Assembly (NCBI GenBank): GCA_026770705.1
Contig: JANJGN010000017.1
Location: forward strand, 55,800,001 to 55,864,000
Origin: Isurus oxyrinchus
Taxonomy: Eukaryota
Direction: 5' to 3'
Length of the DNA stretch: 64,000 nucleotides
The translations under genes were made by a program, and so were the position numbers. Under the pieces are notes generated by a model. It was not told the origin of the DNA. It saw nothing but the letters and a program-made list of their open reading frames with translations, and made no database searches. How positions within the stretch are numbered: the first letter of the stretch is position 1; every line of letters starts with the position of its first letter. Positions 35,373 to 60,472 of the stretch are shown one piece after another.

Positions 35373-35414
35373 GTAAGTAGGTTATTATTGAAAAGCAACT
35401 ACAGTTGAGTATCC

Positions 35415-36761
35415 AAAACAAAAACAGAATTACCTGGAAAAACTCAGCAGGTCTGGCAGCATCGGCGGAGAAGAAAAGAGTTGACGTTTCGAGTCCTCAT
35501 GACCCTTCGACAGAACTTGATTTCGAGTCCAGGAAAGAGTTGAAATATAAGCTGGTTTAAGGTGTGTGTGGGGGGTGGGGGGGGGGAGAGATAGAGAGAG
35601 AGGTGCTTCTGTAGACAAACAAGCAGTGATAGAAGCAAATCATCAAAAGATGTCAGTCACAATGGTACAAAAGAACACATAGGTGTTAAAGTTAAAGTTG
35701 GTGATATTATCTAAACGAATGTGCTAATTAAGAATGGATGGTAGGGCACTCAAGGTACAGATCTAGTGGGGGTGGGGGGAGCATAAAAGATTTTAAAATA
35801 TTTAAAAATAATGGAAATAGGTGGGAAAAGAAAAATCTATATAATTTATAGGGAAAAAAAGGGGGAAACAGAAAGGGGGTGGGGATGGGGGAGGGAGCTC
35901 ACGACCTAAAGTTGTTGAACTCAATATTCAGACCGGAAGGCTGTAAGGTGCCTAGTCGGAAGATGAGGTGTTGTTCCTCCAGTTTGCGTTGGGCTTCACT
36001 GGAACAATGCAGCAAGCCAAGGACAGACATGTGGGCAAGAGAGCAGGGTGGAGTGTTAAAATGGCAAGCGACAGGGAGGTTTGGATCATTCTGCATCTGC
36101 ATTGTTCCAGTGATGCCCAACGCAAACTGGAGGAACAACACCTCATCTTCCGACTAGGCACCTTACAGCCTTCCAGTCTGAATATTGAGTTCAACAACTT
36201 TAGGTCGTGAGCTCCCTCCCCCATCCCCACCCCCTTTCTGTTTCCCCCTTTTTCCCCTTTTTTTCCCTATAAATTATATAGATTTTTCTTTTCCCACCTA
36301 TTTCCATTATTTTTAAATATTTTAAAATCTTTTATGCTCCCCCCACCCCCACTAGATCTGTACCTTGAGTGCCCTACCATCCATTCTTAATTAGCACATT
36401 CGTTTAGATAATATCACCAACTTTAACTTTAACACCTATGTGTTCTTTTGTACCATTGTGACTGACATCTTTTGATGATTTGCTTCTATCACTGCTTGTT
36501 TGTCTACACAAGCACCTCTCTCTCTCTTTCTATCTCTCCCCCCCCCACCCCCCCCCCCCCCCGCCCCCCCACACACACCTTAAACCAGCTTATATTTCAA
36601 CTCTTTCCTGGACTCGAAATCAAGTTCTGTCGAAGGGTCATGAGGACTCGAAACGTCAACTCTTTTCTTCTCCGCCGATGCTGCCAGACCTGCTGAGTTT
36701 TTCCAGGTAATTCTGTTTTTGTTTTGGATTTCCAGCATCCGCAGTTTTGTTTTGTCTTTAT
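35415..36761. mobile_element. Penelope-like element copy 1: two inverted 3' ends only (fold-back)
   Basis: Minus arm 35415-~36092 and plus arm 36097-36761. Both carry the GIY-YIG C-terminus (...QPSGLNIEFNNFRS) and the 3' pLTR. 15-bp TSD TACAGTTGAGTATCC at 35400-35414 and 36762-36776. Confidence 0.93.
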
Positions 36762-36763
36762 TA

Positions 36764-37111
36764 CAGTTGAGTATCCTTTATCCGTAAATCCGAAAACTGA
36801 ACACATCCAAAAACCACACTTTTTTGAACCTTATCAACCTTTAGCATAGGAAGCCTAGCTGTTTGTCTTCACTCTTTGCCTTGTGATTTTTTCAAATTCA
36901 AATTCACATTTCAAAAAGAAAGTTATTACAGGTACCCTGTATTTATTATTCAGTAATGCATCTTACTTTTCTCGCCATTTTATTTACTTTAGACTATAGG
37001 TAACTTAGGCTTAGGCTATTGTAAGCTTATACATGGCATCCGAAAACTGAAATTATCTGAAAACCAAAATGGAGACAGCCTGAGGGTTTCGGATAAAGGA
37101 CGCTCAACCAG
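36764..37111. mobile_element. Tc1/mariner Tigger4/MER46-like MITE
   Basis: TA|CAGTTGAGTATCCTTTATCCG ... CGGATAAAGGACGCTCAACCAG|TA imperfect terminal inverted repeats, with internal TCCGAAAA repeats. Confidence 0.75.
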
Positions 37112-37170
37112 TACTTTATAATTGTGATAGTTGTGCGTGTTTATAACACCTTTTTGTTTCTTGTACTTAG

Positions 37171-37277
37171 TCGAAATACGCGGAAGGTGCGTGAATTGTG
37201 GTGGCAAGGTATTCCGCCAAGTGTTCGAGGAAAAGTATGGAGCTTGGCTGTTGGTAATGAACTGAATATTACTCATG
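37171..37277 (+). CDS. TBC1D12: TBC1D12 coding exon (start of TBC domain)
   Basis: TTAG| ... CATG|GTATGT. Encodes [35 protein letters not shown](E). 107 nt. Confidence 0.96.
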
Positions 37278-38255
37278 GTATGTGCACTGCCTGAATCTTT
37301 ACATAAATTACTTTGTTAATGAAAAGAAAGAAAAAATGTTCTGCTTCAAAAATGTTGTGGCAATTGCACTTTTCTGACACTTATTGCTTATGTAAGCCTA
37401 GTGAGTTTGGCAGGCGATGGACTGAATGTAACAACAATGGTCTAACTGACTCTGACCTTGCTTTATTCCAGCAGGGATCACTGAAGTTAGACCAGGAAAA
37501 GGAACTCTTGCTGATTGTCTTCCCCAATAATTTCAGGGATCAAAAATGAATTATAATATTCCTGCTGCCACCCCAACCGAGATCCTCTATGTCGGTGCAG
37601 ATCAAGGTTGAATCTGCAACGGCTATATGTCTCAGAGTCCAAGGGAAGAGGTTATTAATTAATTGAGCTGCTTATAGTTAGTGATTACTGAATTAAATAT
37701 TGGTGCTTTCATGGTTATTATCTTGTGCCAGCATTGGATATGTTACAAAGTCCGCAGACAACTATGAGTAGATTTATTAAGGAAGTAAATGTAGTGTCAG
37801 TCACTTCTCAGTATTACAAAACATAGTTGTGCAGCATCAGAAATTATTACAACTACACTAGATTTAATTTTAGCCTATTTATAAATAGCACTGGACAGTG
37901 TTTAAGAAATTAAGCTCTTTCAAATTGAACTAGATTCAGAAGTGATCTAACATTCCCTTCACAATATTCAGATCTTTTAACTGAAACGGCAAGTAGAAAA
38001 AAACGTAAAACTGAAGCTTTTGTTCCCTCAGGTGACTAGCTCCCGATTTCAACTATACTACTGGGGCGATAGTAAATGGAGGGCCATGGCTTCCCCAAGG
38101 AACCTCTTCTGGGCCACAGTCACACACATCCTGTAGTGACGTTTTTAAAATAGTTTTTGTTAGCTATCCATGATCAGGTTGATTCAGTTGGAAAGGGAGA
38201 AATTAACATTTTTTTTAAATACCTTAATTGTTTATAGTGTCTTTCCATTTCATAG

Positions 38256-38336
38256 AGCTTTATGAAATCTTCCTGTCTAGAGCTAAGGAGCGCTGGAAAA
38301 ACTTCAGTGAGATTGGATCAGAGAATGAGACTGAAG
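38256..38336 (+). CDS. TBC1D12: TBC1D12 coding exon
   Basis: CATAG| ... GAAG|GTAAAT. Encodes LYEIFLSRAKERWKNFSEIGSENETE, the TBC1D12-type sequence rather than the TBC1D14-type. 81 nt. Confidence 0.95.
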
Positions 38337-41300
38337 GTAAATTGACTTTTAAATTACCTCTCATGGAACAAATCATTAAATTGCCAATGCAGAAAAGCAA
38401 AGCGGTCCTCTTCACTCTGGTTGGTATTAAGTTCTTGAATGTTGTTGGAGCTGCACTCATCCAGGCAAGTGGAGAGTATTCCATCCCACTCCTGATTTGT
38501 GCCTGGCTTTGGGGAGTCAGGTGATGAGTTACAGGATTCCTAGCGTCCGACCTGCTCTTGTAGCCACAATATTTATATGGCTAGTCCAGTTTGGTTTCTA
38601 GTCAATGGCAAGCCCCCCAGGGTGCTGATAATGGGGGATTCAGTGATGGCAATGCCATTGAATGTCAAGGGTCGATGGTTAGATTCTCCCTTGTTGGAGA
38701 TGGTTATTGCCTGGCACTTGTGTGACACGACTGTTAAATGCCACCTGTCAGCCCAAGTCTGGATATTGTCAAGGTCTTTCTGCATTTGGACATGGACTGC
38801 TTCAGTATCTGAGGAGTCATGAATGGTGCTCAAGCTTGTGCAATCATCAGCGACCGTCCCCACTTCGGACCTTAGGATGGAGGGAAGGTCATTGATGAAG
38901 CAGCTGAACATGTTTGGGCCTAGGACACTACCCTGCAGTGAGGTCCTGGAACTGAGATGATTGACTTCCAACAGCCACAACCATCTCCCTTTATGCTAGG
39001 CATGACTTCAACCAGTGGATAGTTTTCCCCCAGTTCCCACTGACTCCAGTTTTGCTCTGGCTTCTTAATGCCACTCTCGTTCAAATGCTGCTTTGATGTC
39101 AAAGACAGTCACTCTTGCCTCACCCATGGAGTTAAGCAGCATTGTCCATGTTTGAACCAAGGCTGTAATGAGGTCAGGAGCTGAGTGGCCCTGGCAAAAC
39201 CCAAACTGAGCATCAATGGACAGGTTATTGCTAAGCAAGTGCTGCTTGAAAGCACTGTTGATGACCCCTTCCATTACTTAGAATACAAGAAATAGGAGTA
39301 GGCCATTCAGCCCTTCAAGCCTGCCCCGCCATTCACGAAGGTCATGGCTGATCTGCCCCAGGCCTTAACAACTCTTTCGTGCCAGCTCCTCATTGCCCTC
39401 AACTCACCAATATTTCAAAAATCTATTTACCTCCTCTTTAAATATTTTGTGATCTAGCATCCACAGTTCTCTTGGGTATAGAATTCCAGACATTCACTAA
39501 CCTCTGAGAGAAGAAATTCCTTCGCATCTCAGTTTTAAATGGATGCCCCCTTATTCTGTAACTATATCCCCTAGTTCGAGATTCCCCCACTAATGGAAAT
39601 ATCTTCTCAATATCTACCCTGCTAAGCTGCCTCAGAATCTTGTATCTTTCAATAAGATCACCCCTCATTCTTCTAAACTCTAATGAATAAAGACCTAACC
39701 TGTTCAGCATTTCCTGATAAGTGAACTCCTTCATCCCAGAAATCAACCTAGCGAATCTCTTTTGAACTGCCTCCAGTGCCAGTATATCCTTTCTTAAGTA
39801 CAGCTACCAAACTGCACAGAGTACTCCGTGTAAGGCCTCACCAATACCCTGTACAGTTGTAACAAAGCTTCCCTATTTTTAAACTCCAACCCCCTGGCAA
39901 TGCATTCCATTTGCCACCTTAATTATTTGCTGCACCTGCATGCTAACTTTTTGTGTTTCATGTACAAGAACACCAAGTTCCCTCTGTGCTGCACTTTTTT
40001 GAAGAGTATGTCCATTTAAATAATACTGTTTTTTGATTCTTTCTACCAAAGTGCATGATTTCACACTTTCCTACATTTAAACTCTATCTGCCAAGTTTTT
40101 GCCCACTAACTCAACCTGTCTATATCCCCTTGCAGATTCCTTATGTCCTCATCACAACATGCCCTCCCACCTATTTTTGTATCGTCAATAAATCACACTC
40201 TGCCCCCTCCTCCAAGTCATTAATATAGATATTTAGTAATTGAGGCCCTAGGACTAACCCTTGTGGCATTCCATTAGTTACGTCTTTCCAACCTGAAACA
40301 CACCCAATAACCCCAACTCTGTCTTAACCAATCCTCAATCCATGCTAATACATTACCCCCAATACTGTGAGCTCCTATTTTGTGTAATAACCTTTTATGT
40401 GGCACCTTATCAAATGCCTTCTGGAAATCCAAATACACTACATCTACCAGTTCCCTTTACCAACTTTGCTTGTTAAATCCACAAAGAACTCTAGCAAATT
40501 TGTCAAAGATGATTTCTCTTGCACAAAACCATGTTGACTCTGTTTGACTGCAATAAGCTTTTTTAAATGTCTTGCTATTTCTTCCTTAATATTGGACTCC
40601 AGCATTTTCCTGATTACAGATGTTGAGCTGACTGATTTATAGTTTCCTGTCTTTTGTCTCCCTCCCTTCTTGAACAGGGGCGTCGCATTAATGGTTTTCC
40701 AATCCATTGGGACCCTCCCAGAATCCAGAGAGTTCTGGAATATTTCCACCAAAGCCACTTCTTTTAAAACCCTTGGATGCAGGACAACAGGTCCTGGTGA
40801 CTTGTCTGACTCTGGTCCCATTACTTTGTCAAATAATTTGCCCCTTGTGATAGAGGAGGAACAAGATCTTTCCTCCCATTAGCTCCTTGCTTATCTGATA
40901 TCTTTGGAGTGGTTATAGTGTCCTCTGATGCAAAATATTGGTTTGAATTATCTGCCATTTCCCTGATCCCTGTTATCAATTCTCACTTTAGTCATGCTCT
41001 TTTTATATACCCATAGCTCTTGCTGTTTGTCTTTATATTTCTTGCCAATTTACTTCCTTAATCAATTTTCCCCCTCTTTATTCGCTTTTTAGTCATCTGC
41101 TGCTGGTTCATAAAAAAATTCCCAATCCTCTGGCCTACCACTAGTTTTCACCACTTTGTATGCCTTAGTTTTTGATTGGACACTCTCCTTGACCACTTTT
41201 GTTAACCACACGTGGTTCATCCTTCTTATCAAGTCCTTCTTTTTGACTGAGATAAATTTTTGCTGAGCGTTATGAATATCTGCTTAAATGTCTGCCACTG

Positions 41301-41700
41301 CTCATCCACTGACCTTCCCCTTACTTTAATTTCCCAGCCTGTTTAATTCCCAGCTTTAGGCAACTTTTTCTTCATACCTCTGTAATTGCCTTTGTTTAAG
41401 CTGAGGACGCTGGTTTGAGACCTGAGTTGCTCGCCCTCAAATTGAATTTGAAATTCTACCATGTTGTGATCACTACCCCCTAGAGGATCCTTAACTATGA
41501 TAGCTCTTACTAATCCCGCCTCATTGCACATAACTAGGTCTAAAATAAAAACAAAAACAGAATTACCTGGAAAAACTCAGCAGGTCTGGCAGCATCGGCG
41601 GAGAAGAAAAGAGTTGACGTTTCGAGTCTTCATGACCCTTCGACAGAACTTGATTTCGAGTCCAGGAAAGAGTTGAAATATAAGCTGGTTTACTCTGTTT

Positions 41701-43620
41701 AACTGTCGGCGCGACATTAGTCGTCTCAATTTCTCTGCTCCTCTCACCCATTCTAACCTGTCTCTCTCTGAACTTACTGCACTCCATTCTCTCAGGTCCA
41801 ACCCTGACATTGTCATCAAACCCGCTGACAAGGGTGGTGCTGTTGTTGTCTGGCGCACTGACCTCTACCTCGCGGAGGCTGAGCGTCAACTCGCAGACAC
41901 TTCCTCCTACCTCTCCCTGGACCATGACCCCACCACTGAACATCAAGCCATTGTTTCCAGGACTGTCACTGACCTCATCTCCTCTGGGGATCTCCCTCCC
42001 ACAGCTTCCAACCTGATAGTCGCCCAACCTCGGACGGCCCGCTTCTATCTCCTACCCAAAATCCACAAACAGAACTGCCCCGGTAGACCGATCGTCTCAG
42101 CTTGCTCCTGCCCCACAGAACTCATTTCTCGTTATCTTGACTCCCTTCTCTCTCCCCTTGTCCAGTCCCTTCCCACCTACATCCGTGATTCCTCTGACAC
42201 CTTACGTCACATCAACAATTTCCAGTTCCCTGGCTCCAACCGCTTCCTCTTCACCATGGACGTCCAATCCCTCTACACCTCCATCCCCCACCAGGATGGT
42301 CTGAGGGCCCTTAGCTTCTTCCTCGAACAGAGGCCCGAACAATCTCCATCCACCACTACTCTCCTCTGTCTGGCTGAACTTGTTCTCACGTTGAACAATT
42401 TCTCCTTCAACTCCTCTCACTTTCTCCAAATAAAAGGTGTGGCTATGGGTACCCGCATGGGCCCCAGCTATGCCTGTCTCTTTATGGGATATGTGGAACA
42501 TTCCTTGTTGCAGTCCTACCCCGGCCCCCTTCCACAACTTTTTCTCCGGTACATCGATGATTACTTCGGTGCCGCTTCATGCTCTCGTCGGGACTTGGAA
42601 AAATTTATTAATTTTGCTTCCAATCTCCACCCCTCCATCATTTTCACGTGGTCCATCTCTGACACTTCCCTTCCCTTCCTTGACCTCTCTGTCTCAATCT
42701 CTGGTGATAGACTGTCCACTAATATCCATTACAAACCCACCGACTCCCACAGCTACCTCGACTACAGCTCCTCACACCCCGCTTCCTGTAAGGACTCCAT
42801 CCCATTCTCCCAGTTCCTTCGCCTTCGTCGCATCTGTTCCGATGATGCTACCTTCAAAAACGGTTCCTCTGACATGTCCTCCTTCTTCCTTAACCGAGGT
42901 TTTCCACCGACGGTCGTTGACAGGGCCCTCAACCGTGTCCGGCCCATCTCCCGCGCATCCGCCCTCACGCCTTCTCCTCCCTCCCAGAAACATGATAGGG
43001 TCCCCCTTGTCCTCACTTATCACCCCACCAGCCTCCGCATTCAAAGGATCATCCTCCGCCATTTCCGCCAACTCCAGCATGATGCCACCACCAAACACAT
43101 CTTCCCTTCACCCCCCTTATTGGCATTCCGTAGCGATCGCTCCCTCCGAGACACCCTGGTCCACTCCTCCATCACCCCCTACTCCTCAACCCCCTCCTAT
43201 GGCACCACCCCAAGCCCACGCAAAAGATGTAACACCTGCCCCTTCACTTCCTCTCTCCTCACCGTCCAAGGGCCCAAACACTCCTTTCAAGTGAAGCAGC
43301 ATTTCACTTGCATTTCCCCCAACTTAGTCTACTGCATTTGTTGCTCCCAATGTGGTCTCCTCTACATTGGAGAGACCAAACGTAAACTGGGCGACCGCTT
43401 TGCAGAACACCTGCGGTCTGTCCGCAAGAATGACCCAAACTTCCCTGTCACTTGCCATTTTAACACTCCACCCTGCTCTCTTGCCCACATGTCTGTCCTT
43501 GGCTTGCTGCATTGTTCCAGTGAAGCCCAACGCAAACTGGAGGAACAACACCTCATCTTCCGACTAGGCACCTTACAGCCTTCCGGTCTGAATATTGAAT
43601 TCAATAACTTTAGGTCGTGA
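41701..43620 (+). CDS. PLE reverse transcriptase + GIY-YIG endonuclease (5'-truncated, uninterrupted frame of 639 codons)
   Basis: The frame stays open upstream of the listed ORF at 42256. Motifs: IKPADKGG, FYLLPKIHK, GRPIVS, MDVQSLYTSIP, GVAMG, RYIDD, IPFSQFLRLRRICS, Cys-rich linker, NLVYC..C..C.LLYIGET, GLN. Confidence 0.93.
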   Translation, partial: NCRRDISRLNFSAPLTHSNLSLSELTALHSLRSNPDIVIKPADKGGAVVVWRTDLYLAEAERQLADTSSYLSLDHDPTTEHQAIVSRTVTDLISSGDLPPTASNLIVAQPRTARFYLLPKIHKQNCPGRPIVSACSCPTELISRYLDSLLSPLVQSLPTYIRDSSDTLRHINNFQFPGSNRFLFTMDVQSLYTSIPHQDGLRALSFFLEQRPEQSPSTTTLLCLAELVLTLNNFSFNSSHFLQIKGVAMGTRMGPSYACLFMGYVEHSLLQSYPGPLPQLFLRYIDDYFGAASCSRRDLEKFINFASNLHPSIIFTWSISDTSLPFLDLSVSISGDRLSTNIHYKPTDSHSYLDYSSSHPASCKDSIPFSQFLRLRRICSDDATFKNGSSDMSSFFLNRGFPPTVVDRALNRVRPISRASALTPSPPSQKHDRVPLVLTYHPTSLRIQRIILRHFRQLQHDATTKHIFPSPPLLAFRSDRSLRDTLVHSSITPYSSTPSYGTTPSPRKRCNTCPFTSSLLTVQGPKHSFQVKQHFTCISPNLVYCICCSQCGLLYIGETKRKLGDRFAEHLRSVRKNDPNFPVTCHFNTPPCSLAHMSVLGLLHCSSEAQRKLEEQHLIFRLGTLQPSGLNIEFNNFRS

Positions 43621-43929
43621 GCTCCCTCCCCTATCCCCACCCCCTTTCTGTCTCCCCCTTTTTTTCCCCCCTTTTTTTCCCTATAAATTTTATAGATTTT
43701 TCTTTTCCCACCTATTTCCATTATTTTTAAATATTTTAAAATCTTTTATGCTCCCCCCACCCCCACTAGAGCTGTACCTTGAGTGCCCTACCATCCATTC
43801 TTAATTAGCACATCCGTTTAGATAATATCACCAACTTTAACTTTAACACCTATGTGTTCTTTTGTACCATTGTCACTGACATCTTTTGATGATCTGCTTC
43901 TATCACTGCTTGTTTGTCTACACAAGCAC

Positions 43930-43970
<41 letters not shown>

Positions 43971-44042
43971 CCCCCCCCACACACACACACACACACACCT
44001 TAAACCAGCTTATATTTCAACTCTTTCCTGGACTCGAAATCA

Positions 44043-44081
44043 AGTTCTGTCGAAGGGTCATGAAGACTCGAAACGTCAACT
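44043..44081 (+). ncRNA. Minimal type I hammerhead ribozyme-like motif in the PLE pLTR. Also at + 36623-36661, + 60098-60136, - 35479-35517, - 41612-41650, - 57933-57971
   Basis: AGUU-CUGUCGA-A-GGGUC(loop)GACUC-GAAAC-GUC-AACU: stem I, core, 5-bp stem II, GAAA, palindromic ACGU stem III and a GUC cleavage triplet. Such motifs are characteristic of PLE pLTRs. Confidence 0.7.
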
Positions 44082-47000
44082 CTTTTCTTCTCCGCCGATG
44101 CTGCCAGACCTGCTGAGTTTTTCCAGGTAATTCTGTTTTTGTTTTGGATTTCCAGCATCCGCAGTTTTGTTTTGTCTTTAGGTCTAAAATAACCTGTTCC
44201 CAGGAAGGTTCTGCAATGTATTACTCTAAGAAACAAAACCTGATACGCTCTACAAATTCATCTTCCATGTTACCCCTGCCAATCTGATTTATCCAGTCAA
44301 TATGCAGATTAAGATCAGCCATTTCAATTGTAGCGCCCTACTTACACGCCTCCATCATTTCCCCATTTATACTTTGTCCTACAGTAAGGTAACTCTAGAG
44401 GGGCCCACCGGTAACGTCTTCCCCTTGCTATTCCTTATTCCCACCCAAACTAATTCCACATAACAATCTATTGCAGCTATATATCATTACTCACCGCCTC
44501 CCTTTATTAACAAAGCTACCCCTCCTTTTCCTTTTAGCCTATTTTTTCAGAATGTCGAATACTGAGTTCCCAGCCTTGGTCACCCTGCAATCACGTATCT
44601 GTAATGGATATCAAGTCATTTATTTCTATTTGTGCCATCAACTCATCTATCTTGTTACAAATGCTGTATGCATTGAGATAAAGAGCCTTAAGCTTTGACT
44701 TTTTACCATTATTACTCATTCTGGTTCTAATTTCTGCACTCTTCTGCTTATATTTTCTGCCCCTTCCTGTCACACTTTGATTATTGTTCACCTCTTCACT
44801 ACACCACATCTCTGTTCTTTCGTTTCTTTTTGACTTTTTAAACTTCCCTTCAATTGAACCCTCCCGTCCACTAATTACTTTAAAGCCCTATCTACAATCC
44901 TAGTTATATGGTTCGCCAGGACACTGGTCCCAGCATGGTTGAAATGAAGCCTGTCCCAACAGAACAGCTCTCTCCTTCCCCGTACTGGTGCCAGTGCCCC
45001 ATGAATGAGAACCCATTTATCACACACCAATCTTTGAGTCACACATTTACCTCTTTAATCTTATTTACCCTACACCAATTTGCACATGACTCAGGTAGTA
45101 ATCCGGAGATTATTACCTTTGTCGTTTTGCTTTTTAATTTAGTCCTGAGCTGCTCGTAGTCCCTCAGCAGAACCTAGTCCTACCTATGTCGTTGGTACCT
45201 ATGTGGACCATGACAACTGGATCCTTCCCCTCCCACTCCAAGTTCCTCTCTAGCCCAGAAGAGATGTCGTTAACCTTGGCACCAGGTAGGCAACACAGCC
45301 TTTGGGACTGCCTGCCTTTGCTGCAGAGAACAGACCTATTCCCCTAACTATGCTAACCCCTGTTTACTACTACATTTCTCTTTTCTCCCCCCACTTGAAT
45401 GGCGCTCTGTACCATGGTGCTGTGGTCAGTTTGCTCATCCTCCCTGCAGTCTGTGCCCTTGTCCACACTGGAAGCAAGAACCTCTTACCTATTGGCAAGA
45501 TCACTGGCTGAGGCTCCTCCAAAGCTAAATTCTGGATCCCTATACCTGCCTCACTTGCAGTCACACCCTCCTGTCCCTGACCATGGTCCAAATTTGATGT
45601 AATTAATCTAAGGGGTGTGACAGTGTCTAGGTAACTCTCCCCCTCCCTGATGTGTCACAGTGTCCGCAGCTCAGTCAACTCTGAGCCGAAGTTCGTGGAG
45701 CAGCCAACACTTGCTGCTGATGTGGTCACCATGGATCGCACTGGCGTCCACCAGCTTCCACATACTACAGCTGTAACACATCGCCTGCCCAACTTTACTG
45801 ATGAGGGAGGGTAGACTGATGGATCGGTAATTGGCCAGGTTGGTTTTTGTGTACAGGACATATCTGGGCAGCTTACCATATTGCGAGGTAGATGCCAGAA
45901 TTGTAGCAGTACTGGAACAGCTTGGCAAGTTCTGGAGCATGAGTTCTGGAGTGCGAGTTTTCAGTACTATTGCCAGAATGTTGTCAGGGCCCATAGGTTT
46001 TCCAGTGTCCAGTGCCTTCAGCCATTTCTTGATAGCACAAAGTGAATCGAATTGGCTGAAGACTGGCATCTGTAATGCTGGGGACCTCTGGTGGAGGCTG
46101 ATATGGATCATCCACCTGGCACTCCTGGCTGAAGATTGATGGAAATGCTTCAGCCTTAGCTTTTGCACTGATGTGCTGGGCTCCCCCATCGTTGAGGATG
46201 GGGATATTTGTGGAGCCTCCTTCTCCAGTGAGTTGCTTAATTGTCCATCACCATTCATGACTGGATATGGCAGGACTGCAGAGCTTAAATCTAATCCATT
46301 GGTTGTGAAATCACTTGGCTTTGTCTATTGTTTGCTGTTTATGCTGTTTGGCACACAAGTAATCCTGTGTTGTAGCTTTACCTGGTTGACACCTCATTTT
46401 TAGGTATGCCTAGTGCTGCTTCTAGCATGCCCTCCTGCACTCTTCATTGAACTAAAGTTGATCCCCTGGTCTGGTGGTGATGGTAGAATGGGAGATATGC
46501 CATGCCATAAGGCTACAGATAGTGGTTGAGTACAGTTCTGCTGCTGATGTTGATCCACAGTGCCTCATGGCTGCCCAGTCTTAGTTGCTAGATCTGTTTC
46601 AAATCTGCCCCATTTAGCATGGTGGTAGTGCCACACAACACGATGGAGGGTATCCTCAATGTGAAGACGAGACTTTGTCTCCACAAGAGCTGTATGGTGG
46701 TCACTCACAGTGATACTGTCATGGGCACATGCATCTGTGGCAGGCAGGTTGGTTAGGATGACGTTAGGTATGTTTTTCCCTCTTTTTCGTTCGCTCACCG
46801 CCTGCTGCAGACCCAGTCTAGCAGCTATGTTCATGGGACTCGGCCAACTTGGCCTGTACTGGTGCTACTGAGCTACTCTTGTTGATGGACATTGAAGATT
46901 ACCACCCAGGGTCAGTTCTGTGCCCCTGCCACCCTCAGTGCTTCCTCCAAGTGGTGTTCAACATGGAGAAGCACTGATTCATCAGCTGAGGAGGTACGTT

Positions 47001-49472
47001 ACATGGTAATCAGCAGGAGGTTTCCTTGCCCATGTTTGACCAGATGCCATGGGACTTCATGGCGTCTGAAGTCGATGTTGAGCGCTCCCAGAGCAACTCC
47101 TGACTGTGTACCACTGTGCTGCCACTTCTGCTGGGTCTGTCCTGCCAGTGAGACAGGACATACTCAGGAATGGTGATGGTGATGCCTGGGACATTGTCTG
47201 TCAGGTATGATTCTGGGAGTATGACTATGTCAGGCTGGCTTGACTAGAGTGTGAGGCAGCTCTCCCAATTTTGGCACTAGGCCCCGGATGTTATTGAGGA
47301 GGACATTGCTCGACAGGGCTGAGATTGCCGTTATCATTTCCGGTGCCTAAGTCGATGCCGAATGGTCCATCCGGGTACATTCCTTTTGGATATTTTAGTG
47401 GTTTGATACAGCTGAGTGGCTTGCTATGCTATTTCAGAGAGCATTTAAGAGTCAGCAACATTGCTGTGAATCTGCTGTGGAGCCACATGTAGCCAGACCA
47501 GGTAGGAACACCAGATTTCCTTCCCTAAAGGACATTATTGAACCAGATGGGTTTTTACAACAATTGACTGGTTTTATGGTCACCATACGACTTTTAATTC
47601 CAGATTTTTATTTAATTTAAATTTCACCATTTGGTGGGGTTTGAATCCATGTCCCCAGAGCATTACCCTGGGCCTCTGGATTACTAGTCCAGTGACAATA
47701 CAGCTACACCACCGCCTCCATATTTTATCTTTCATTTTTCCATTGTTCCATATTTTATTTTTCCTACTATTCAGGGGAAAAAGTGAAGGCTCTAGATGAA
47801 AAACTTGCATAATCTTTGGAAAGTAAGGGAACCTTGAGCAGTTGTATGGGAATAACTGAAATTTATGCATTATTCAAGCACGCACTTTTTCTTCAAGTGG
47901 TTTATAACTGGAAATCACTGACTTTTCAGTACAGCTTGGGCAGGAGTGCACATATAAACCTTTCTGACATGTAACTGAGAATCTTCACCAGAAGTGCTGA
48001 AGCCAGCAACTGACTGTATGAATCCCTGTCCTTGCACATATCTTGTCATGATCTATAAGAGGAAAAGCAGCTTCAAGCAGAGAACATAACCAGGCCAGAT
48101 CTGGCAACCCAGATCTGCTTATTAATGATGCTCCTGAGATGCCACCTGAAGTTTAAGAACTTCTGATTAGCAACGGAGGCACTCAAAACCTTAGAACTTG
48201 CAGCTAATGTCAGGTTGTGGGGAACATGGAAAACAAATGGAGTGAAGAATCAAGATCTGATCATGAAGTCCACAGGTTAACTACTTGGCTTCACCATGCA
48301 GCAAAAAAATAGGGGCACTGAACCACAGCATAATTTCATATAGGTGCTGCAGCCATGTGCTATATAAAGGGAAGATGAAGTGACATGCAACTGGAGAAGC
48401 TATCCAAACATGCAAGAATAGCTTCAACTCACTCCCTAACACTAGAGGCCATAGAGTGGATGAATAATTTGGATGTCAGCATTTAACCTTGCTTTTCAAT
48501 CTGCAATACCAAGCAACTACAGCATTGGGCCTTTTTATTTAAACATTAAATATGTTGGTAGTGCATTTTAAATAGTAAATTAAATCAGACCAAACCAAAG
48601 GATAGATAATCAACACATCAAGCATTTTACTCAAAGCTGTTCAAACTGTTGGAACTGCTCCGTTTCCTTTTTATAATCAAGTAGTGATTAAGAATGGTAT
48701 TTAATATCCATGTTTAGTTGAGTTATTGTTGCTTCTTCATTAAATAATTTCTGTTTTTTATGTACTAGAATGTAACATTCTGTTCCTATTATGTCTTGAT
48801 GTTTTAAGCTATTGTGTAATTATATATCATAATCTTTAAAGGAGTTATTGGGTTTTGAAAGCAAATTATACCTTTGTATGATTCAGAACTGTGGGTAGTG
48901 AACCATTATTGACTTGTTCTCCTTGATTGTGCATATAATGTCATGCTGGCTTATCTGGTTGTTTTAGTCTTATATGTGGGCATTATCTGTGCAGTATCAT
49001 GATTTTGCATTTTCCTCTGGTGCATGGCAGCAAATGCAAAATTAAATATGATCACTGTCATCTGTAATCTGTTTCTGCTGTTGTGTAAATTTAGGTTGAT
49101 TTTATAAAATGAAATTTCTAGTGACTACTAGTAATGTTCTATCTGCTGCAGATACCAGGATTCCATGTGGCAGATGCCGGAGCTATGACAAAGAAAATAA
49201 ATCCCTCTAAGTCAAATATAAGCTGTAACCTAAGTAAATGTTTCCTTTTAGCATTTTTGCCATAAGTATGAGAAAATAATTCACAGACCTGGGAAATTGT
49301 GCACATATAGAATATAATGATCTAATTAAAATAGGCAGCCAACACATTTTTGACCATTTTACCAACTTCATGTAGAAAAATGCCATCACGTAAAATAAAT
49401 TCAATTGTCAGTTGAGACATAAAGTGCAATGCCAGCTACAATCAGTAATGATTTATTACTGCTGATTTCCAG

Positions 49473-51703: not shown

Positions 51704-51775
51704 GGTGGACCATATCACGATCTCTTGCATAGTGTCCTTGGGGCATATACCTGCTACAGGCCTGATGTGGGATAT
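51704..51775 (+). CDS. TBC1D12: TBC1D12 coding exon
   Basis: AAG| ... TAT|GTAAGT. Encodes [24 protein letters not shown]. 72 nt. Confidence 0.96.
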
Positions 51776-52269: not shown

Positions 52270-52813
52270 ATTGTAAACTCGTATGAGTTCCTTTAATCTT
52301 TTGAGAAGCAAAACTTTTACTTATTTTCATTTTTATTCATTTATTCCTTTTTATCCCCTTTTTTACCCCCCTTTTCTATCCCTTTTTTACCGTTTCCGCA
52401 CCCCCCCCCCTCAAAACGGGCCATCTGCCATTCGTTCTATGTTGTTGTTTCAGAATGCTGATCCTTGTTCTGCTATTAACACATTCTGCTTTCATACCTT
52501 TATGCCACTATCAGCACCTTAAGTCTTCATCATGACCATTAACACTCCCTTTGTCTTCTATCCATGACGTCTTTAGTCAATCTCTCCTTAGCCCCCACCT
52601 ATCACTGACCTATCCTGCTTTACCTGCTCCGCCCCCTTAAACAGTATAAATTCCATCACATTTCTACTTTGCTTTAGCTCTGAAGAAGATTGATAAGGAC
52701 TTGAAACATGAACTCTGTTTCTCTCTCCATAGATGCTGTCAAACCTGCTGAGTTTTTCCAACATTTTCTGTTTTTATTTCAGAATTTCAGCATCCGCAGT
52801 ATTTTGCTTTTAA
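52270..52813 (+). mobile_element. Old Penelope-like 3' end / pLTR relic
   Basis: Pyrimidine-rich UTR, then CTGAAGAAG...GAAACATGAACTC...AGATGCTGTCAAACCTGCTGAGTTTTTCCA...CAGCATCCGCAGT, homologous to the young pLTRs. Confidence 0.8.
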
Positions 52814-52824
52814 CCTTTGTAATA

Positions 52825-53045
52825 ATATGGGAATGGAATCACACGTGGACCAAACCAGGTAGAGGTGCAGGTTCCCTTCCATGAAGGATTTTACAATAAT
52901 CTGGCATTTCCTGTGATCATTTTTTTCTGGTGCTTGTCCACAAATTGTCATATTTATTAAATTGAATCTGACAATTTTCTGTGGTGGGTTTTGAATTTGC
53001 CCCCTCTGGGTTGCTAGTCCAGTACCATAGCCATTACATTGCCAT
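52825..53045 (-). mobile_element. tRNA-derived SINE related to the family B head
   Basis: GTGGTGGGTTTTGAA...TTGCTAGTCCAGTACCATAGCCATTAC is homologous to 47630-47715. A shorter related head lies at ~55120-55212. Confidence 0.65.
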
Positions 53046-53618
53046 ATCTTGAAGAACATTATTGTAAAATGAGTCTGATGGTAAATCATAAAAGAACTGG
53101 TGAATTTTGCTGAATGGTTGAACATAAGCAACAATTCTTAGTACCAAATTAACAACACCATGCTATGATATCCTGAGGAGCAGGTGGAATATTAAGGTCT
53201 TAATTTGATGACTTTTCAGGTCAGCTGCGTCTTAATTCTTAAATAGAGCAAGATCTGCCACCTTACAGCATTTGTTAGACCTAACTGACCTTGAACATAG
53301 CTCTGCACTGTTGCTAGATTTTTCTCAAAGGCACAGATATTCCCTGTGACTATGAATGGTGATTACCTCCCTCCAGTCTGTTACTCCCATTGTGTTCCCC
53401 AGGCTAGGAGAAAACAGACCCTTGGCTGCCTGTTGCTGGAACAGATTATAAGCTACTTTGTAACAGAAACATAAAGGGAATTGCAACTGGTGAAATCATC
53501 TATGAAGGAAGGAAAGTGATTGCATGAAATTCTGTACATTACCAGCAGTGCAGAAGCCAGCTCATAAGTTCATAAATTTTAATACAACAATTAATCATAA
53601 GCATGCTATTTCCTGCAG

Positions 53619-53747
53619 GTCCAAGGAATGTCTTTTGTTGCTGCTGTGCTCATCCTCAATTTGGAAGAAGCAGATGCTTTTATAGCTTTTGCAAACCTAT
53701 TGAACAAACCCTGTCAGCTGGCATTTTTCCGTGTGGATCATAGCATG
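53619..53747 (+). CDS. TBC1D12: TBC1D12 coding exon with YxQGM glutamine finger
   Basis: CTGCAG| ... ATG|GTAAGG. Encodes [43 protein letters not shown]. 129 nt. Confidence 0.97.
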
Positions 53748-55432
53748 GTAAGGGCATTGCAGTGCACAGACGTCTGAAACAGATGACAGGATTACATGCT
53801 ATTTGTCTGCATGTGGAAGGACTGATGCAACATCAAATCAACTGTGGAGCTACTGACAACTGGTCTATGACACCAGAGTTGTGTTTGTTTCAGAAGTACT
53901 ATAGGAAAAATGTCTGCTTAAGCTGTAGAATCTTAATAGTTGTAACATGCACAGTTGGATCAGTTTAAAATGGCATTTTAAGCATCAGTGTCTATCCTTT
54001 TTCTTAAAGTTACAATATTCCTTATCCATTCCCATATTTCAACAAATGTCTTAAAATAGTCAAGTGTGTAAGTCCAGCAGCGGGACCAAACAACACCACA
54101 ATTGATAATTCAGAAGAATTTATTACATGTCTTACTTGTGACATAATTGTCTGTTAGAAAAACCTGCACTCATTTCTCTGCTGAGGAGCCACAAGGCGGT
54201 GTATGCATTTATTGTGCTTTTTTTCATTTGCTTCATCCCTGTGGGAGGAAGGATGCTAATCTATGACTTATTACTGCTGTTGTGATCGGAGGTGCACAGC
54301 ATGGGAAAACCCACCTGGAAGCACATATACTATATCATGAAAAAGCATGTATTGAACATGTCACCCAAATATTAATGAATTCATCATTTAAAAACTTAAT
54401 TTGCAAGCTGGATATTAAGTGGAGGGAAGGTAAATTGGATTGCAACAGGTCACAGTGATGAAAAATACTTGGGGAAAAATCCTTGAAAATTGAAAGAAAA
54501 TAGCTTCCCTAAGGCTCGGTAACAACGTATCCAACACAATGAAGTAATGGAGCATTAGAACAAAGAGGTTCCACTTCATTCTTTGTTTATCTTTAAATTT
54601 GTAGCTGTTTGCTGTGGTAAAAATGGGGATGCGATAATGACCTATGCATCCCTGGGCTAGGGGGAATCAAAATCAGGTTTTCTTCCTCTTTTTTTTCTAC
54701 TTCATGACCTCTCCTGGAAAATATGAGAGAGAACTCCAAGCGGGATCATCCCTCCCATAAGTCATCTAGTGTGACAACACACTTATTGTCTAGTAAAAAT
54801 TAAGGCACCTGTGGAAGGATACCTCAAAAAGGTGAACACCTTTGTGGGACAGGAGGAGAAAAGCTGCAGAAAAATAATCCAAGGAATACTCCAAGGAACA
54901 TTTGCAACTGAATCATATGATTGTGCACTACTTTCCCAATGTGAACTCTATTCATTTAACGAAATGAACTTCCCACAATGTGTGATTATTGTAAGTGCTC
55001 GAGTCAACTCAGTTTTACAATGAAACTGTTATCTAGCATTCTTATGTCATTGTATGTTGTTTTTGTGTACTTGTAACTCTTTCGAGTACAAACACGTTTC
55101 CATCTGTTCCTATTCAGTTGAAATTACATTGTTTCATAATTTGCCATGGTGAGATTTGAACTCTTGATCTTGGGGTTACAAGCCCAGTACCATAACCACT
55201 TGGCTATTTAGGCATTCTAGCTATAATCACCCCAGTCTTAATTGAAATTAAAAGCCAAATAAGATAAAGTTTCAAAGCTTGATTAATGTGAGCTAATGCT
55301 GAGTATTCCTTTCGAGTCAAATATTTTTTAAAAAGTTTTTTTATCATGAAAATGATAAAATTGGTTGACAGATTTTTTTTTAAATATTGTTTACTTCAAC
55401 AACTGAAATCTTAAAAAAATTCTTCTCCTCAG

Positions 55433-55542
55433 ATGCTGAAATATTTTGCATCATTTGAAGTGTTTTTTGAAGAAAATCTTCCAAAGCTCTTTGCACATTT
55501 TATGAAAAATAACTTGACTCCAGATATCTACCTTATAGACTG
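55433..55542 (+). CDS. TBC1D12: TBC1D12 coding exon
   Basis: CTCAG| ... TG|GTAAGT. Encodes [36 protein letters not shown](W). 110 nt. Confidence 0.97.
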
Positions 55543-55820
55543 GTAAGTGCATTAATCATTTGTTTGTGTTTTGAATTTCCAGTAATAATTTTGCAGTTTA
55601 AGATCACTGAGTAGTATATTTGTTTACAGATTGATGTCCAGAGTAAAGGTTTAACCTTTGAAATCGTTCCGCGAAACTAATCACCAAATTAGTATATGTT
55701 GCCTGCATGCATATATATACAATTTATAATGCATAAAACAGACTACTTCATGTAGCAATTGTTAGAATTGTGACTATAGCAGCCACTGTATTAATTTGGA
55801 TTCTACTCTTTAAATTATAG

Positions 55821-56079
55821 GATATTTACACTCTATAGTAAGTCACTGCCTCTCGACCTAGCTTGTCGAGTCTGGGATGTCTTTTGCCGGGATGGAGAAG
55901 AGTTCCTTTTTCGAACAGCATTGGGCATCCTCAAGTTGTATGAGGACATTTTAGTGCAAATGGACTTTATTCATATAGCTCAATTTCTTACCAAACTGCC
56001 TGAAGATATCACATCAGAAAAACTTTTTGCTTGCATCACTACTGTTCAGATGCACAGCAGTAACAAAAAATGGACACAG
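55821..56079 (+). CDS. TBC1D12: TBC1D12 coding exon
   Basis: TATAG| ... CAG|GTGAGG. Encodes [86 protein letters not shown]. 259 nt. Confidence 0.97.
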
Positions 56080-56319
56080 GTGAGGAAACGAATAACTAAG
56101 AGATGGAATATTAAGTTTAACACTTTTATTAGTACAGAACGCATAATTAATGTGGAAAATGTTTGATATGTGAAGGCCTTTATTTCAGCAGCAATACAGG
56201 CTTTGATGTGTCTCAACAATCAGCAGTCACTTATAACAAACTATAAGAGCAAAACTTAATTTATATATCCTCAAGAACAAGATATGCTACTAGTTTGGAA
56301 TATATACTAATGTGTTATC

Positions 56320-57100
56320 TGTTATGACACAGCAGTTGGTAAAGGCTGAGTTGTTTAAATCCCAGAAGGAAACTTGAACAAGTCATAACCTATATTTTAA
56401 ATTGGCATGTGGAGTTGAGCTTTGAATTCAGGAAGAAAGCCACCAAATCTCGAGGTTTTTTATATAAAACTAAATTAAACATTTAAATTAACAACACATT
56501 AAACACGTATGCACATTTCTACAAATTACTACCCTAAAACTTTTAAACAAATCCCCAAATTAATCACTCCTAGGTAAATCTCCAAGGCAACAATAACCCA
56601 TAGATTTAAACTGACACCAGGCAAAGCACGTTTGACCTTACGAATTTAAAATGAGGTTCCTTTGCAGACGCGGTTGTAGCCTTACAGGCTGGTTAGATCT
56701 TAAATGCCTCTGACCTACACACACAAACTCCTTTCTGTTTATACCTAGCTTTCCCTCTAAATGTAACTTTTCCGTTGTATCCTAGGCTTTTAACTTCACA
56801 TTTTCTAACTATAATCCTTTCATTCCACCAATTTTATTAGTAATATAAACACATTGTTTGGCATCTCCCAGCTAGGTGCAAGATTTTACCTATTCTTTTG
56901 AATGGTTTATTCAACAAATGCAAATTGCACTTTACCTTTTAGCTTATGTTTATCTAATTAACATCTCAAAACTACTATATACCAAAGCACCCAGACTAGC
57001 TGGCTTTAATCCAATTAAGACACACACACACACACTCTACTACAAGTCCAATTTAAAAAATAATTTCCAATATTATAGACATTAATATTTCTTCATGATA
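56320..57100 (-). mobile_element. Solo LTR family 2, copy B
   Basis: TGTTATGA...TTCATGA(T)A termini with flanks TATC/TGTC. Colinear with 21496-22299. Strand is tentative. Confidence 0.75.
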
Positions 57101-57830
57101 TGTCTAAATTGTGGATCAATTTCTGAAGTTTTGATGCTGTAGTGAAATCTACATAATATGACCTCACTTCACTTCTATGAACATTAAAAGACCGGCAATC
57201 GCTTATGCCACCATTTTCATGCTCCCTCTTAAGGTTTTTGTATCTATGTTCTCCTGGCTAGCTTCTGACATTATTTTAACTCCTTGACAAACTCTTACAT
57301 CTCTTCTATTAATTGAAGAGGATGAAATTTCATTTGTAACAAAGTAAATAAATTGCTAACACAATAGAGATACATGGGTATGATATGACAGTCATTAGAG
57401 AGATATGGTTGCAAGGTGACCAACACTGCAAACTGACTATTCGAGGGTATTTGACATTTCAAAAGGATAGGAAGAAAGGAATAAAGAGGTGGAGTAGCTC
57501 TGTTAATCAGAGACGAGATCAATACGGTAGTGGGAACTGATCTTGGTTTGGAAGATCAAGATGTAGAATTAGTTTGGGTTGGGATAAGGAATAGCAAGGG
57601 AGGAAGTCACTGGTGGGTGTAGCTTATAGAACCCCTAACCATGGTTTCACTATAGGACAGAGTATAAATCAAAAAAATAATGGGGGTTTGTAAGAAAGAT
57701 ACAGTAATAATTGTGGGTGATTTTAATATTCATATAGATAGAACAAATAAAGTTAGCAAAGGCAGCTTTGAGGATGAATTCTTGGAACGTATTTGTGACA
57801 GTTTCTTAGAACAATATTTTGTGGAACCAA

Positions 57831-60194
57831 GAGATAAAAACAAGAAAAACTGCGGATGCTGGAAATCCAAAACAAAAACAGAATTACCTGGAAAAACTCA
57901 GCAGGTCTGGCAGCATCGGCGGAGAAGAAAAGAGTTGACGTTTCGAGTCCTCATGACCCTTCGACAGAACTTGATTTCGAGTCCAAGAAAGAGTTGAAAT
58001 ATAAGCTGGTTTAAGGTGTGTGTGTGGGGGGCGGAGAGATAGAGAGAGAGGTGGTTGTGTAGACAAACAAGCAGTGATAGAAGCAGATCATCAAAAGATG
58101 TAAGCGACAATGGTACAAAAGAACACATAGCTGTTAAAGTTAAAGTTGGTGATATTATCTAAACGAATGTGCTAATTAAGAATGGATGGTAGGGCACTCA
58201 AGGTACAGCTCTAGTGGGGGTAGGGGGAGCATAAAAGATTTTAAAATATTTAAAAATAATGGAAATAGGTGGGAAAAGAAAAATCTATATAATTTATAGG
58301 GAAAAAAAGGGAAAAAGGGGGAAACAGAAAGGGGGTGGGGATGGGGGAGGGAGCTCACGACCTAAAGTTGTTGAATTCAATATTCAGACCGGAAGGCTGT
58401 AAGGTGCCTAGTCGGAAGATGAGGTGTTGTTCCTCCAGTTTGCGTTGGGCTTCACTGGAACAATGCAGCAAGCCAAGGACAGACATGTGGGCAAGAGAGC
58501 AGGGTGGAGTGTTAAAATGGCAAGCGACAGGATGCCTGTCTCTTTATGGGATATGTGGAACATTCCTTGTTGCAGTCCTACCCCGGCCCCCTTCCACAAC
58601 TTTTTCTCCGGTACATCGATGATTACTTCGGTGCCGCTTCATGCTCTCGTCGGGACTTGGAAAAATTTATTAATTTTGCTTCCAATCTCCACCCCTCCAT
58701 CATTTTCACGTGGTCCATCTCTGACACTTCCCTTCCCTTCCTTGACCTCTCTGTCTCAATCTCTGGTGATAGACTGTCCACCAATATCCATTACAAACCC
58801 ACCGACTCCCACAGCTACCTCGACTACAGCTCCTCACACCCCGCTTCCTGTAAGGACTCCATCCCATTCTCCCAGTTCCTTCGCCTTCGTCGCATCTGTT
58901 CCAATGATGCTACCTTCAAAAACGGTTCCTCTGACATGTCCTCCTTCTTCCTTAACCGAGGTTTTCCACCCACGGTCGTTGACAGGGCCCTCAACCGTGT
59001 CCGGCCCATCTCCCACGCATCCGCCCTCACGCCTTCTCCTCCCTCCCAGAAACATGATAGGGTCCCCCTTGTCCTCACTTATCACCCCACCAGCCTCCGC
59101 ATTCAAAGGATCATCCTCCGCCATTTCCGCCAACTCCAGCATGATGCCACCACCAAACACATCTTCCCTTCACCCCCCTTAACGGCATTCCGTAGGGATC
59201 GCTCCCTCCGGGACACCCTGGTCCACTCCTCCATCACCCCCTACTCCTCAACCCCCACCTATGGCACCACCCCATGCCCACGCAAAAGATGTAACACCTG
59301 CCCCTTCACTTCCTCTCTCCTCACCGTCCAAGGGCCCAAACATTCCTTTCAAGTGAAGCAGCATTTCACTTGCATTTCCCCCAACTTAGTCTACTGCATT
59401 CGTTGCTCCCAATGTGGTCTCCTCTACATTGGAGAGACCAAACGTAAACTGGGCGACCGCTTTGCAGAACACCTGCGGTCTGTCCGCAAGAATGACCCAA
59501 ACCTCCCTGTCGCTTGCCATTTTAACACTCCACCCTGCTCTCTTGCCCACATGTCTGTCCTTGGCTTGCTGCATTGTTCCAGTGAAGCCCAACGCAAACT
59601 GGAGGAACAACACCTCATCTTCCGACTAGGCACCTTACAGCCTTCCGGTCTGAATATTGAGTTCAACAACTTTAGGTCGTGAGCTCCCTCCCCCATCCCC
59701 ACCCCCTTTCTGTTTCCCCCTTTTTCCCCTTTTTTTCCCTATAAATTATATAGATTTTTCTTTTCCCACCTATTTCCATTATTTTTAAATATTTTAAAAT
59801 CTTTTATGCTCCCCCTACCCCCACTAGAGCTGTACCTTGAGTGCCCTACCATCCATTCTTAATTAGCACATTCGTTTAGATAATATCACCAACTTTAACT
59901 TTAACAGCTATGTGTTCTTTTGTACCATTGTCGCTTACATCTTTTGATGATCTGCTTCTATCACTGCTTGTTTGTCTACACAACCACCTCTCTCTCTCTC
60001 TATCTCTCCGCCCCCCACACACACACCTATCTCTCTGCCCCCCACACACACACCTTAAACCAGCTTATATTTCAACTCTTTCTTGGACTCGAAATCAAGT
60101 TCTGTCGAAGGGTCATGAGGACTCGAAACGTCAACTCTTTTCTTCTCCGCCGATGCTGCCAGACCTGCTGAGTTTTTCCAGGTAATTCTGTTTT
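57831..60194 (+). mobile_element. Penelope-like element copy 3, 5'-truncated, with a ~700 bp inverted arm
   Basis: Minus arm 57831-58531 and plus arm 58532-60194. 16-bp TSD TATTTTGTGGAACCAA at 57815-57830 and 60195-60210. Confidence 0.95.
58546..59682 (+). CDS. PLE RT C-terminal half + GIY-YIG (truncated copy)
   Basis: 378-aa ORF nearly identical to copy 2: RYIDD, CPRKRCNTC, LVYCIRCSQCGLLYIGET. Confidence 0.9.
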   Translation: MGYVEHSLLQSYPGPLPQLFLRYIDDYFGAASCSRRDLEKFINFASNLHPSIIFTWSISDTSLPFLDLSVSISGDRLSTNIHYKPTDSHSYLDYSSSHPASCKDSIPFSQFLRLRRICSNDATFKNGSSDMSSFFLNRGFPPTVVDRALNRVRPISHASALTPSPPSQKHDRVPLVLTYHPTSLRIQRIILRHFRQLQHDATTKHIFPSPPLTAFRRDRSLRDTLVHSSITPYSSTPTYGTTPCPRKRCNTCPFTSSLLTVQGPKHSFQVKQHFTCISPNLVYCIRCSQCGLLYIGETKRKLGDRFAEHLRSVRKNDPNLPVACHFNTPPCSLAHMSVLGLLHCSSEAQRKLEEQHLIFRLGTLQPSGLNIEFNNFRS

Positions 60195-60472
60195 TATTTT
60201 GTGGAACCAACCTGGGAGCAGGCTCCAATATTGCCTAGGGTAGACTCTAGCAAGGGTTAGACTTTTTTCAATAAGTTCACTGTATTGTTTCTGAGTCTGC
60301 TAAATTCAGGATTGACAGAAGGTTTTATCTTCCATTTTGAGTCTGTAAGTACACAATTACAGAAACATTAATGCACCAGTACAGTTCCATTCTTGAGTTA
60401 ATTTGAAAGTCAGACTCAGAGTTTTGGGTCATTTGTAAATAAAACCTCATTCTTTCCTTTTACAATCTGCAG

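Follow-up and report, generated by a model that had tools for sequence, protein, structure and literature searches.

Paired long and short 3′ ends at inverted Penelope-like insertions of Isurus oxyrinchus, and a probable origin by two-site double target priming

Introduction

Penelope-like elements (PLEs) with an endonuclease (EN+ PLEs) are described as carrying an inverted pseudo-long terminal repeat (pLTR), a tail of 30–40 nt at one end and a target site duplication (TSD) (PMC8557442, PMC3846280), the tail being present "often" at one end only according to PMC8557442, where the origin of the inverted repeats and of the one-sided tail is posed as an open question. Here we analyse a stretch of the Isurus oxyrinchus genome (assembly GCA_026770705.1, contig JANJGN010000017.1, positions 55,800,001 to 55,864,000 of the forward strand; the window, 64,000 nt, whose own numbering is used throughout) in which each of three young PLE insertions is bounded on both sides by a 3′ end of the element, one of the two being long and the other short.

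For the Poseidon element of Anolis carolinensis (PAc), PMC11167929 reports that the purified anole protein cuts and extends both target strands in vitro, that reverse transcription begins on the sense RNA at two internal sites bounding the tail, and that Penelope elements cut their own pLTR region. The protein is predicted to dimerise, and the later, second-strand steps are left unvalidated there; the text available of that study contains no assignment of one site to each nick, no TSD spacing and no account of the inverted arm. In PMC3846280, TSDs of 8–10 bp and a 31-bp tail on one pLTR are reported and self-priming on antisense RNA is proposed, and one or two copies of a 34-bp repeat are described in PMC2377424. 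Further background is given in PMC8969392 and bioRxiv 10.64898/2026.07.22.740005; the portions available of PMC12910113, PMC9977147 and 10.1101/596502 add nothing on mechanism.

The window copies resemble the canonical EN+ PLE of PMC8557442 in the DKG motif of the reverse transcriptase (RT), the CX2-5CxxC linker, the C-terminal GIY-YIG domain, the inverted 5′-truncated copy and the 30–40-bp tail at one end, and differ from it in having no direct upstream pLTR, a hammerhead core with U at position 6, a strict pairing of long with short ends and TSDs of 14–16 bp. With PAc (PMC11167929) they have in common two tail-bounding start sites, a reading in which both strands are cut and extended, a predicted dimer via an N-terminal helix and start sites tied to an RNA stem-loop; PAc, however, belongs to the Penelope/Poseidon clade and has AC-rich start sites and an ATT cleavage preference, whereas here the sites are rich in U and many of the inferred nicks are followed by CCT. 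Adineta vaga Pen2a, Pen2 and Pen3a (PMC3846280) are alike in the inverted pLTR, the tail on one pLTR, palindromic junctions and foreign DNA captured between pLTRs, their TSDs of 8–10 bp contrasting with the longer ones of 12–17 bp here. The architecture (inverted pLTR, one-sided tail, TSD) and the two start sites are already in print and are no discovery of ours, so the original prediction, which read this window as double priming at two RNA sites, is less new than it was presented to be. An explicit model with one nick for each site was not found in the open-licence literature, and what is added here is a sharper model, independent support and direct tests.

Results

Three window insertions pair a long with a short 3′ end

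When the window is compared with itself, one young repeat appears in three copies, all of them internally inverted in layout, and alignment of the six arms places an element 3′ end at both flanks of copies 1, 2 and 3, pointing outward, just as the original prediction had described. Its coordinates and TSDs are also correct: a direct-repeat search at the flanks gives exact TSDs of 15, 14 and 16 bp for copies 1, 2 and 3, and an exact repeat of at least 14 bp occurs in none of 3000 random window pairs. The short arm of each copy ends in a U-rich stretch after GGTAATTCTG, and the long arm extends 34–44 nt beyond, in agreement with the predicted ~30–45 nt. Measured as the distance from the hammerhead-like cleavage triplet, TSD excluded, the short ends lie at +68, +67 and +62 and the long ends at +104, +101 and +106, giving tails of 36, 34 and 44 nt (copies 1, 2 and 3); copies 1 and 2 carry the short end at their left flank and copy 3 at its right flank, again as predicted.

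Copy 1 lies between TSDs at 35400–35414 and 36762–36776 (both +) and consists of a short-ended left arm (35415–36092, −), which reaches ~80 nt further 5′ into the open reading frame (ORF) than the long-ended right arm (36097–36761, +), with a 4-nt filler at the junction (36093–36096) which, together with the first bases of the right arm, makes up a 6-nt tandem repeat. In copy 2, TSDs at 41535–41548 and 44179–44192 (both +) enclose a short-ended left arm of 144 nt (41549–41692, −) that is nested within the right arm, a 5′-truncated open ORF for the RT followed by a GIY-YIG domain at the C terminus (41693–43620, +; the 5′ breakpoint is uncertain by a few nucleotides) and the 3′ untranslated region/pLTR with the long tail (43621–44178, +). 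Copy 3, with TSDs at 57815–57830 and 60195–60210 (both +), has its long end on the left arm (57831–58531, −) and a right arm (58532–60194, +) composed of an ORF fragment, the pLTR and the short end; its junction (58526–58540) is a blunt join that forms a 6-bp hairpin with a 3-nt loop. Three of the six arms stop 111–192 nt upstream of the stop codon (36092, 36097 and 58531; p ~0.04), possibly at an RNA 5′ end, an upstream pLTR boundary or an RT pause.

The long end had been taken for the full terminus of the element. Its position varies by 5 nt among the window copies, and at an outside locus, L002, the same kind of tail continues into the next unit, with its leader and ORF; the long end is therefore not the element terminus.

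The same pairing is found in all complete two-ended units outside the window

The pairing of long with short in three copies has a chance probability of 0.125, so that conviction must come from loci outside the window. A scan of a bacterial genome collection gave 16 loci (L001–L016) with animal-type PLEs, 10 of them from a single record of a metagenome-assembled genome; in these bacterial assemblies the PLE-bearing loci are evidently host contamination. Five complete two-ended units, three canonical PLE and two SINE-like (resembling short interspersed elements, SINEs), were counted, and the L002 copy of family F2 and loci L003, L004 and L008–L016 were left out because one end falls beyond the sequence analysed or the contig does not reach far enough. 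The counted units are two of family F1 (L007 435–961, TSD 17 bp, and L005 2805–4223, TSD 13 bp, both with a tail of 58 nt), one of the Poseidon-type family F3, which has no linker motif (L005 181–2260, TSD 12 bp, tail 41 nt), and two that are tRNA-headed (L005 6055–6982, TSD 12 bp, tail 53 nt; L002 2114–2487, TSD 13 bp with 2 mismatches, equalled in 13 of 2000 random tests, tail 32 nt). All five pair a long with a short end between TSDs of 12–17 bp. Together with the window copies, 8 of 8 complete two-ended units, from four families and two clades, are mixed, an outcome with a probability of at most 1 in 256 under independent end choice.

The tRNA-headed element measures ~260 nt, has no ORF and no hammerhead match, and lies as inverted long and short arms between TSDs of 12–13 bp. 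Its tRNA-like head scores 40 and 36.6 bits with the Rfam tRNA model and is called tRNA-Arg by ARAGORN in L002; a helix-plus-CGC motif with a compensatory change follows the pattern described below, and the L005 unit holds ~310 nt of foreign DNA inside. The element is a candidate SINE mobilised by a Penelope-like element, of which a literature search found no report. In a single case, at L002 4931, the start of a full-length direct copy lies 10 nt past the cleavage triplet of the hammerhead, which is what a template with a ribozyme-cut 5′ end would give.

Arms, junctions and TSD boundaries

The two arms are non-nested in five of the eight units (window copies 1 and 3, the F1 units of L005 and L007 and the SINE-like unit of L002), nested in one (copy 2) and ambiguous in two. 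For copies 1 and 3 it is the short-ended arm that extends further 5′, while the other arm carries the tail. The left arm of the L005 F1 unit is 29 nt of pure tail that is absent from the right arm, so it cannot have arisen by fold-back copying of that arm.

All 9 informative sites in a comparison of the four long arms (copies 1 and 3) group by insertion. The arms of one insertion differ at 3/544, 1/146 and 2/602 positions as counted (copies 1, 2 and 3), or at 3/544, 0/145 and 1/601 once the TSD-boundary columns (one each in copies 2 and 3) are dropped, compared with ~1.4–2.3% between insertions. Such private variants common to both arms are compatible with a single RNA and with a pair of RNAs from one donor. 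At 58379 versus 59661 (alignment column 202) the left arm of copy 3 matches copy 2 and not its own right arm, which could reflect a recurrent mutation or the use of a second template.

The exact overlap between TSD and element measures 4, 1, 1, 6, 2, 0, 3 and 2 nt at the eight short ends (mean 2.4 versus 0.35 expected), a sum matched by none of 200000 simulations; an overlap of this kind is the usual trace of a primer that pairs with a template that continues. The junctions between arms bear end-joining scars: microhomology of 3–4 nt at the head-to-head junctions of L002, L006 and L009, fillers templated from repeats of adjoining sequence in copy 1, L007 and the L005 F3 unit, a 1-nt insertion in the L005 F1 unit and a 5-nt repeat in copy 2, subject to the uncertainty of its breakpoint. 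For comparison, random joins give a repeat of at least 6 nt in 113 of 4000 cases and of at least 5 nt in 324 of 4000.

At 5 of the 10 Neptune-type ends CCT stands directly 3′ of the inferred nick, against a background of 0.013 and in L007 on both strands, a pattern recognised post hoc, and CCT or GTT comes right after 9 of the 16 inferred nicks of the eight units. Each of the three window TSDs starts with TA (chance ~0.002) and none of the five outside TSDs does, so that TA is either family-specific or due to chance. A preference of the endonuclease is a possible source of the CCT/GTT and of the TA.

A predicted RNA helix lies between the two start sites

A script test, whose motif was picked after the sequences had been inspected, detects a long-range helix of 6–8 Watson-Crick bp in 6 of 10 hammerhead-bearing ends. 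Its 5′ strand starts +18 to +22 after the cleavage triplet and its 3′ strand ends 0–1 nt before a CGCA; the five distinct helix sequences all pair, and each is reached by at most 7 of 5000 shuffles. In copy 1 the predicted helix joins 36677–36683 with 36733–36739 and is followed by CGCA at 36740–36743 (+); helix and CGCA are found at window positions 36677–36743 and 52732–52798 and in L008, L009, L011 and L013. Where the ends are known (window, F1 and F2), the short ends fall in the enclosed loop and the long ends 19–42 nt past the helix, so that the tail corresponds to the 3′ strand of the helix, the CGCA and a downstream spacer.

Several other searches for structure were negative: a covariance model built from two sequences of the window missed the ends of F1, F2, L011 and L013, RNAalifold gave no consensus pairs on a four-sequence MAFFT alignment, the folding stability of the whole 3′ end is unremarkable (z 0.38), and the tails alone form no stable hairpins (z −1.0 to +1.05). 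By eye, the short-site region at 36706–36744 contains what resembles a 5′ splice site (CAG/GTAATT), together with a tract of pyrimidines and, at the helix end, a CAG; Penelope elements retain introns.

The N-terminal 340 residues of P0002, a homologue of the window's truncated protein, are predicted to form a homodimer (score 0.58; best of three controls, 0.00) through an antiparallel helix at residues 48–91, with contact agreement of at least 92% between runs and a predicted local distance difference test (pLDDT) score of at least 63. Among microbial proteins, 21 of 30 solved pairs attain the mark used for the dimer score, as against 0 of 23 single chains; in animals 7 of 16 do.

The element and its host gene

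By their linker motif, the window copies are young Penelope-like insertions of the Neptune/Nematis type, for which PMC8557442 gives the CX2-5CxxC linker as a marker; the DKG motif of the RT is given there for canonical EN+ PLEs. The ORF of copy 2 matches Pfam RVT_1 (E 4e-8) and its translation contains the DKG and YIDD motifs; the GIY-YIG Pfam matches (E 7e-4 and 3e-4) are just below the curated cut-off, and the translation has the CCHH pattern, with a CxxC that lies between VY and YIG and a pair of His further downstream. The linker between the RT and the endonuclease is intact in copy 3, has Ser for its first Cys in copy 2 and is conserved in homologues. The same RT/GIY-YIG layout recurs in homologues at 50–74% identity, the best named ones being from sharks and rays (65–74%), and because full-length relatives have ~900 residues, the window copy would lack ~250 N-terminal residues. 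All three copies are 5′-truncated and without a direct upstream pLTR, of which the relative in L002 keeps a 79-nt remnant. A tblastn search with the ORF against plasmids and phages gave no match.

A hammerhead-like minimal motif (36627–36657, +) is identical in all six arms. It has the features described for pLTR hammerheads in PMC4209133, namely helix II, an extra base after A9 and a palindromic ACGU, but a non-canonical core with U at position 6. The Rfam gathering scan of the window gave no matches, hammerhead included, and cofolding of two motifs did not yield a dimeric ribozyme fold. As the core of a recently active family, the U6 variant may be inactive or tolerated.

Exons of a host gene were found on the + strand near 37170–37280, 38256–38340 and 55860–56079, the last of which matches TBC1D14 at E 6e-45; judged by these matches, the gene is a TBC1D12/14-like Rab-GTPase-activating protein gene, with TBC1D12 as an alternative name. 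The three copies lie in this gene, probably within its introns, or beside it, all within 25 kb, with their ORF-bearing arms in its sense. Older repeats resembling long interspersed elements (LINEs), at 65–80% identity, occupy 954–13800, 34100–34980, 38417–40190 and 45800–47460 and include an RT-like frame of 246 codons at 34107–34847.

Discussion

Double target-primed reverse transcription (TPRT) from two sites, with the cDNAs joined head to head, is probably the best reading of these insertions. The endonuclease would nick both target strands 12–17 nt apart, leaving 3′ overhangs that become the observed TSDs, and each 3′-OH would prime a cDNA on the sense RNA, often after pairing over 1–6 nt. 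The short end would be primed inside the loop of the helix and the long end 3′ of the helix and CGCA, the helix presumably guiding the choice, with one start site for each nick. Both cDNAs would come from the same donor, as one tandem transcript with two pLTR-tail units or as two transcripts of one locus, and the likely machine is a predicted protein dimer with two RTs. The two cDNAs would then stop independently, their 3′ ends would be joined through microhomology or templated-insertion end joining, presumably by a host pathway, and the gaps would be filled. This core of the original prediction gains from the non-nested arms, the TSD overlap, the junction scars, the five of five outside units and the in vitro start sites of PMC11167929; its "fixed" start sites soften into zones of 5–7 nt, with sites ~20 nt apart in one SINE-like family.

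A stronger form we hold only tentatively, doubting it slightly more than we believe it: that double TPRT is obligately asymmetric, a two-RT machine nicking both strands 12–17 nt apart while helix and CGCA direct one primer to the site within the loop and the second primer to the site downstream. The "optional" tail would then be the fixed trace of two active sites, and the same RNA element has apparently been captured by a tRNA-headed SINE that inserts likewise, which would make it a Penelope-mobilised SINE.

A number of observations weigh against these proposals. The eight units are a small sample chosen because they are two-ended. The prediction that every insertion is two-ended does not hold for an older related 3′ end in the window (52633–52812, +; ~78% identical, with helix and CGCA kept), which has neither an inverted partner nor a convincing TSD; at L007 3246–4494 a long end stands alone, neither a partner nor a TSD having been found, the L001 end falls ~18 nt after the hammerhead at neither start site, the right end of L006 is lost, and the two tRNA-headed copies differ by ~20 nt in their short end. 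The helix is missing at 4 of the 10 ends (F3, L004, L016 and the solo L001 motif), and F3 still pairs long with short without it. Later gene conversion or a single active master donor can also give both arms common private variants, and the L007 arms, which differ at 3/95 positions, have no private variant in common. The nested arms of copy 2 and the palindromic junction of copy 3 are as self-priming predicts. In vitro, the top and bottom strands did not differ in their start site (PMC11167929), so that an obligate pairing of the two sites is a conjecture.

This last result bears on the reading closest to ours, in which double priming is real and each end chooses its site independently, the pairing being small-sample luck together with the selection of recognisable units. 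It overlaps the double-priming model, the sole difference being whether pairing is obligate, and besides the in vitro data it is favoured by the "often" of PMC8557442 and by the one or two copies of the 34-bp repeat in PMC2377424; set against eight mixed units out of eight in four families and two clades, we think it unlikely, though still a serious contender. Self-priming by fold-back on one template, possibly antisense RNA, followed by endonuclease resolution or trimming that leaves a one-sided tail, has been proposed in PMC3846280 and PMC8557442. It would produce private variants common to both arms and accounts for the 6-bp junction palindrome of copy 3 (113 of 4000 random joins have one as long), the nested arms of copy 2 and the palindromic junctions published for rotifer copies. 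Against it stand the non-nested arms of five of the eight units, the tail-only arm of L005, which could not be copied from the other arm, the TSD/element overlap at short ends and the junctions of L002, L006 and L009, which have microhomology and not palindromes, and in PMC11167929 the start sites map to the tail boundaries on sense RNA. Trimming after synthesis could rescue the non-nesting at the cost of an extra step; what credit this version keeps, chiefly from the copy 3 hairpin and copy 2 nesting, leaves it weakened and unlikely.

Far less probable is that each unit represents two separate insertions at the same spot, made alike by gene conversion between the inverted arms. Inverted repeats can undergo conversion. 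Penelope elements also cut their own pLTR region, according to PMC11167929; each unit, however, has one TSD and none internally, all eight pair long with short, and the within-insertion differences are those given above against ~1.4–2.3% between insertions. As for a fold-back chimera of assembly, or mobilisation as a DNA transposon with the arms as terminal inverted repeats, we give these almost no credence. Long inverted repeats are a known class of assembly artefact, but the copies have unique flanks with TSDs of variable length and non-identical, unequal arms, the host exons continue across them, and the same pattern occurs in unrelated assemblies.

Double target priming also invites comparison with L1. 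In L1 twin priming, two target-strand primers give a TSD and an inverted junction with short microhomology; L1 primes at the poly(A) and once more within the same RNA at a position that varies, uses an apurinic/apyrimidinic (APE) endonuclease and does not duplicate its 3′ end. The two-ended units are like L1 in having a TSD and an inversion with junction microhomology, and unlike it in the duplicated 3′ region, the lack of poly(A), the GIY-YIG endonuclease and the start of both primers within a zone of 35–60 nt. The original prediction made the duplicated 3′ end the point that sets these insertions apart from twin priming, and this goes beyond the evidence: ordinary twin priming on one tandem transcript that carries two pLTR-tail units would also duplicate the 3′ end. 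If one tandem RNA is the template, the process becomes twin priming on an RNA whose 3′ end is duplicated, the contrast with L1 weakens, and L1 twin priming and PLE insertion could be the same mechanism.

The pairing rule, the non-nested arms and the RNA helix make an open question about PLEs countable in fish and invertebrate genomes. If double priming at paired sites is true, a retrotransposon sister to telomerase would prime both target strands on RNA at programmed sites.

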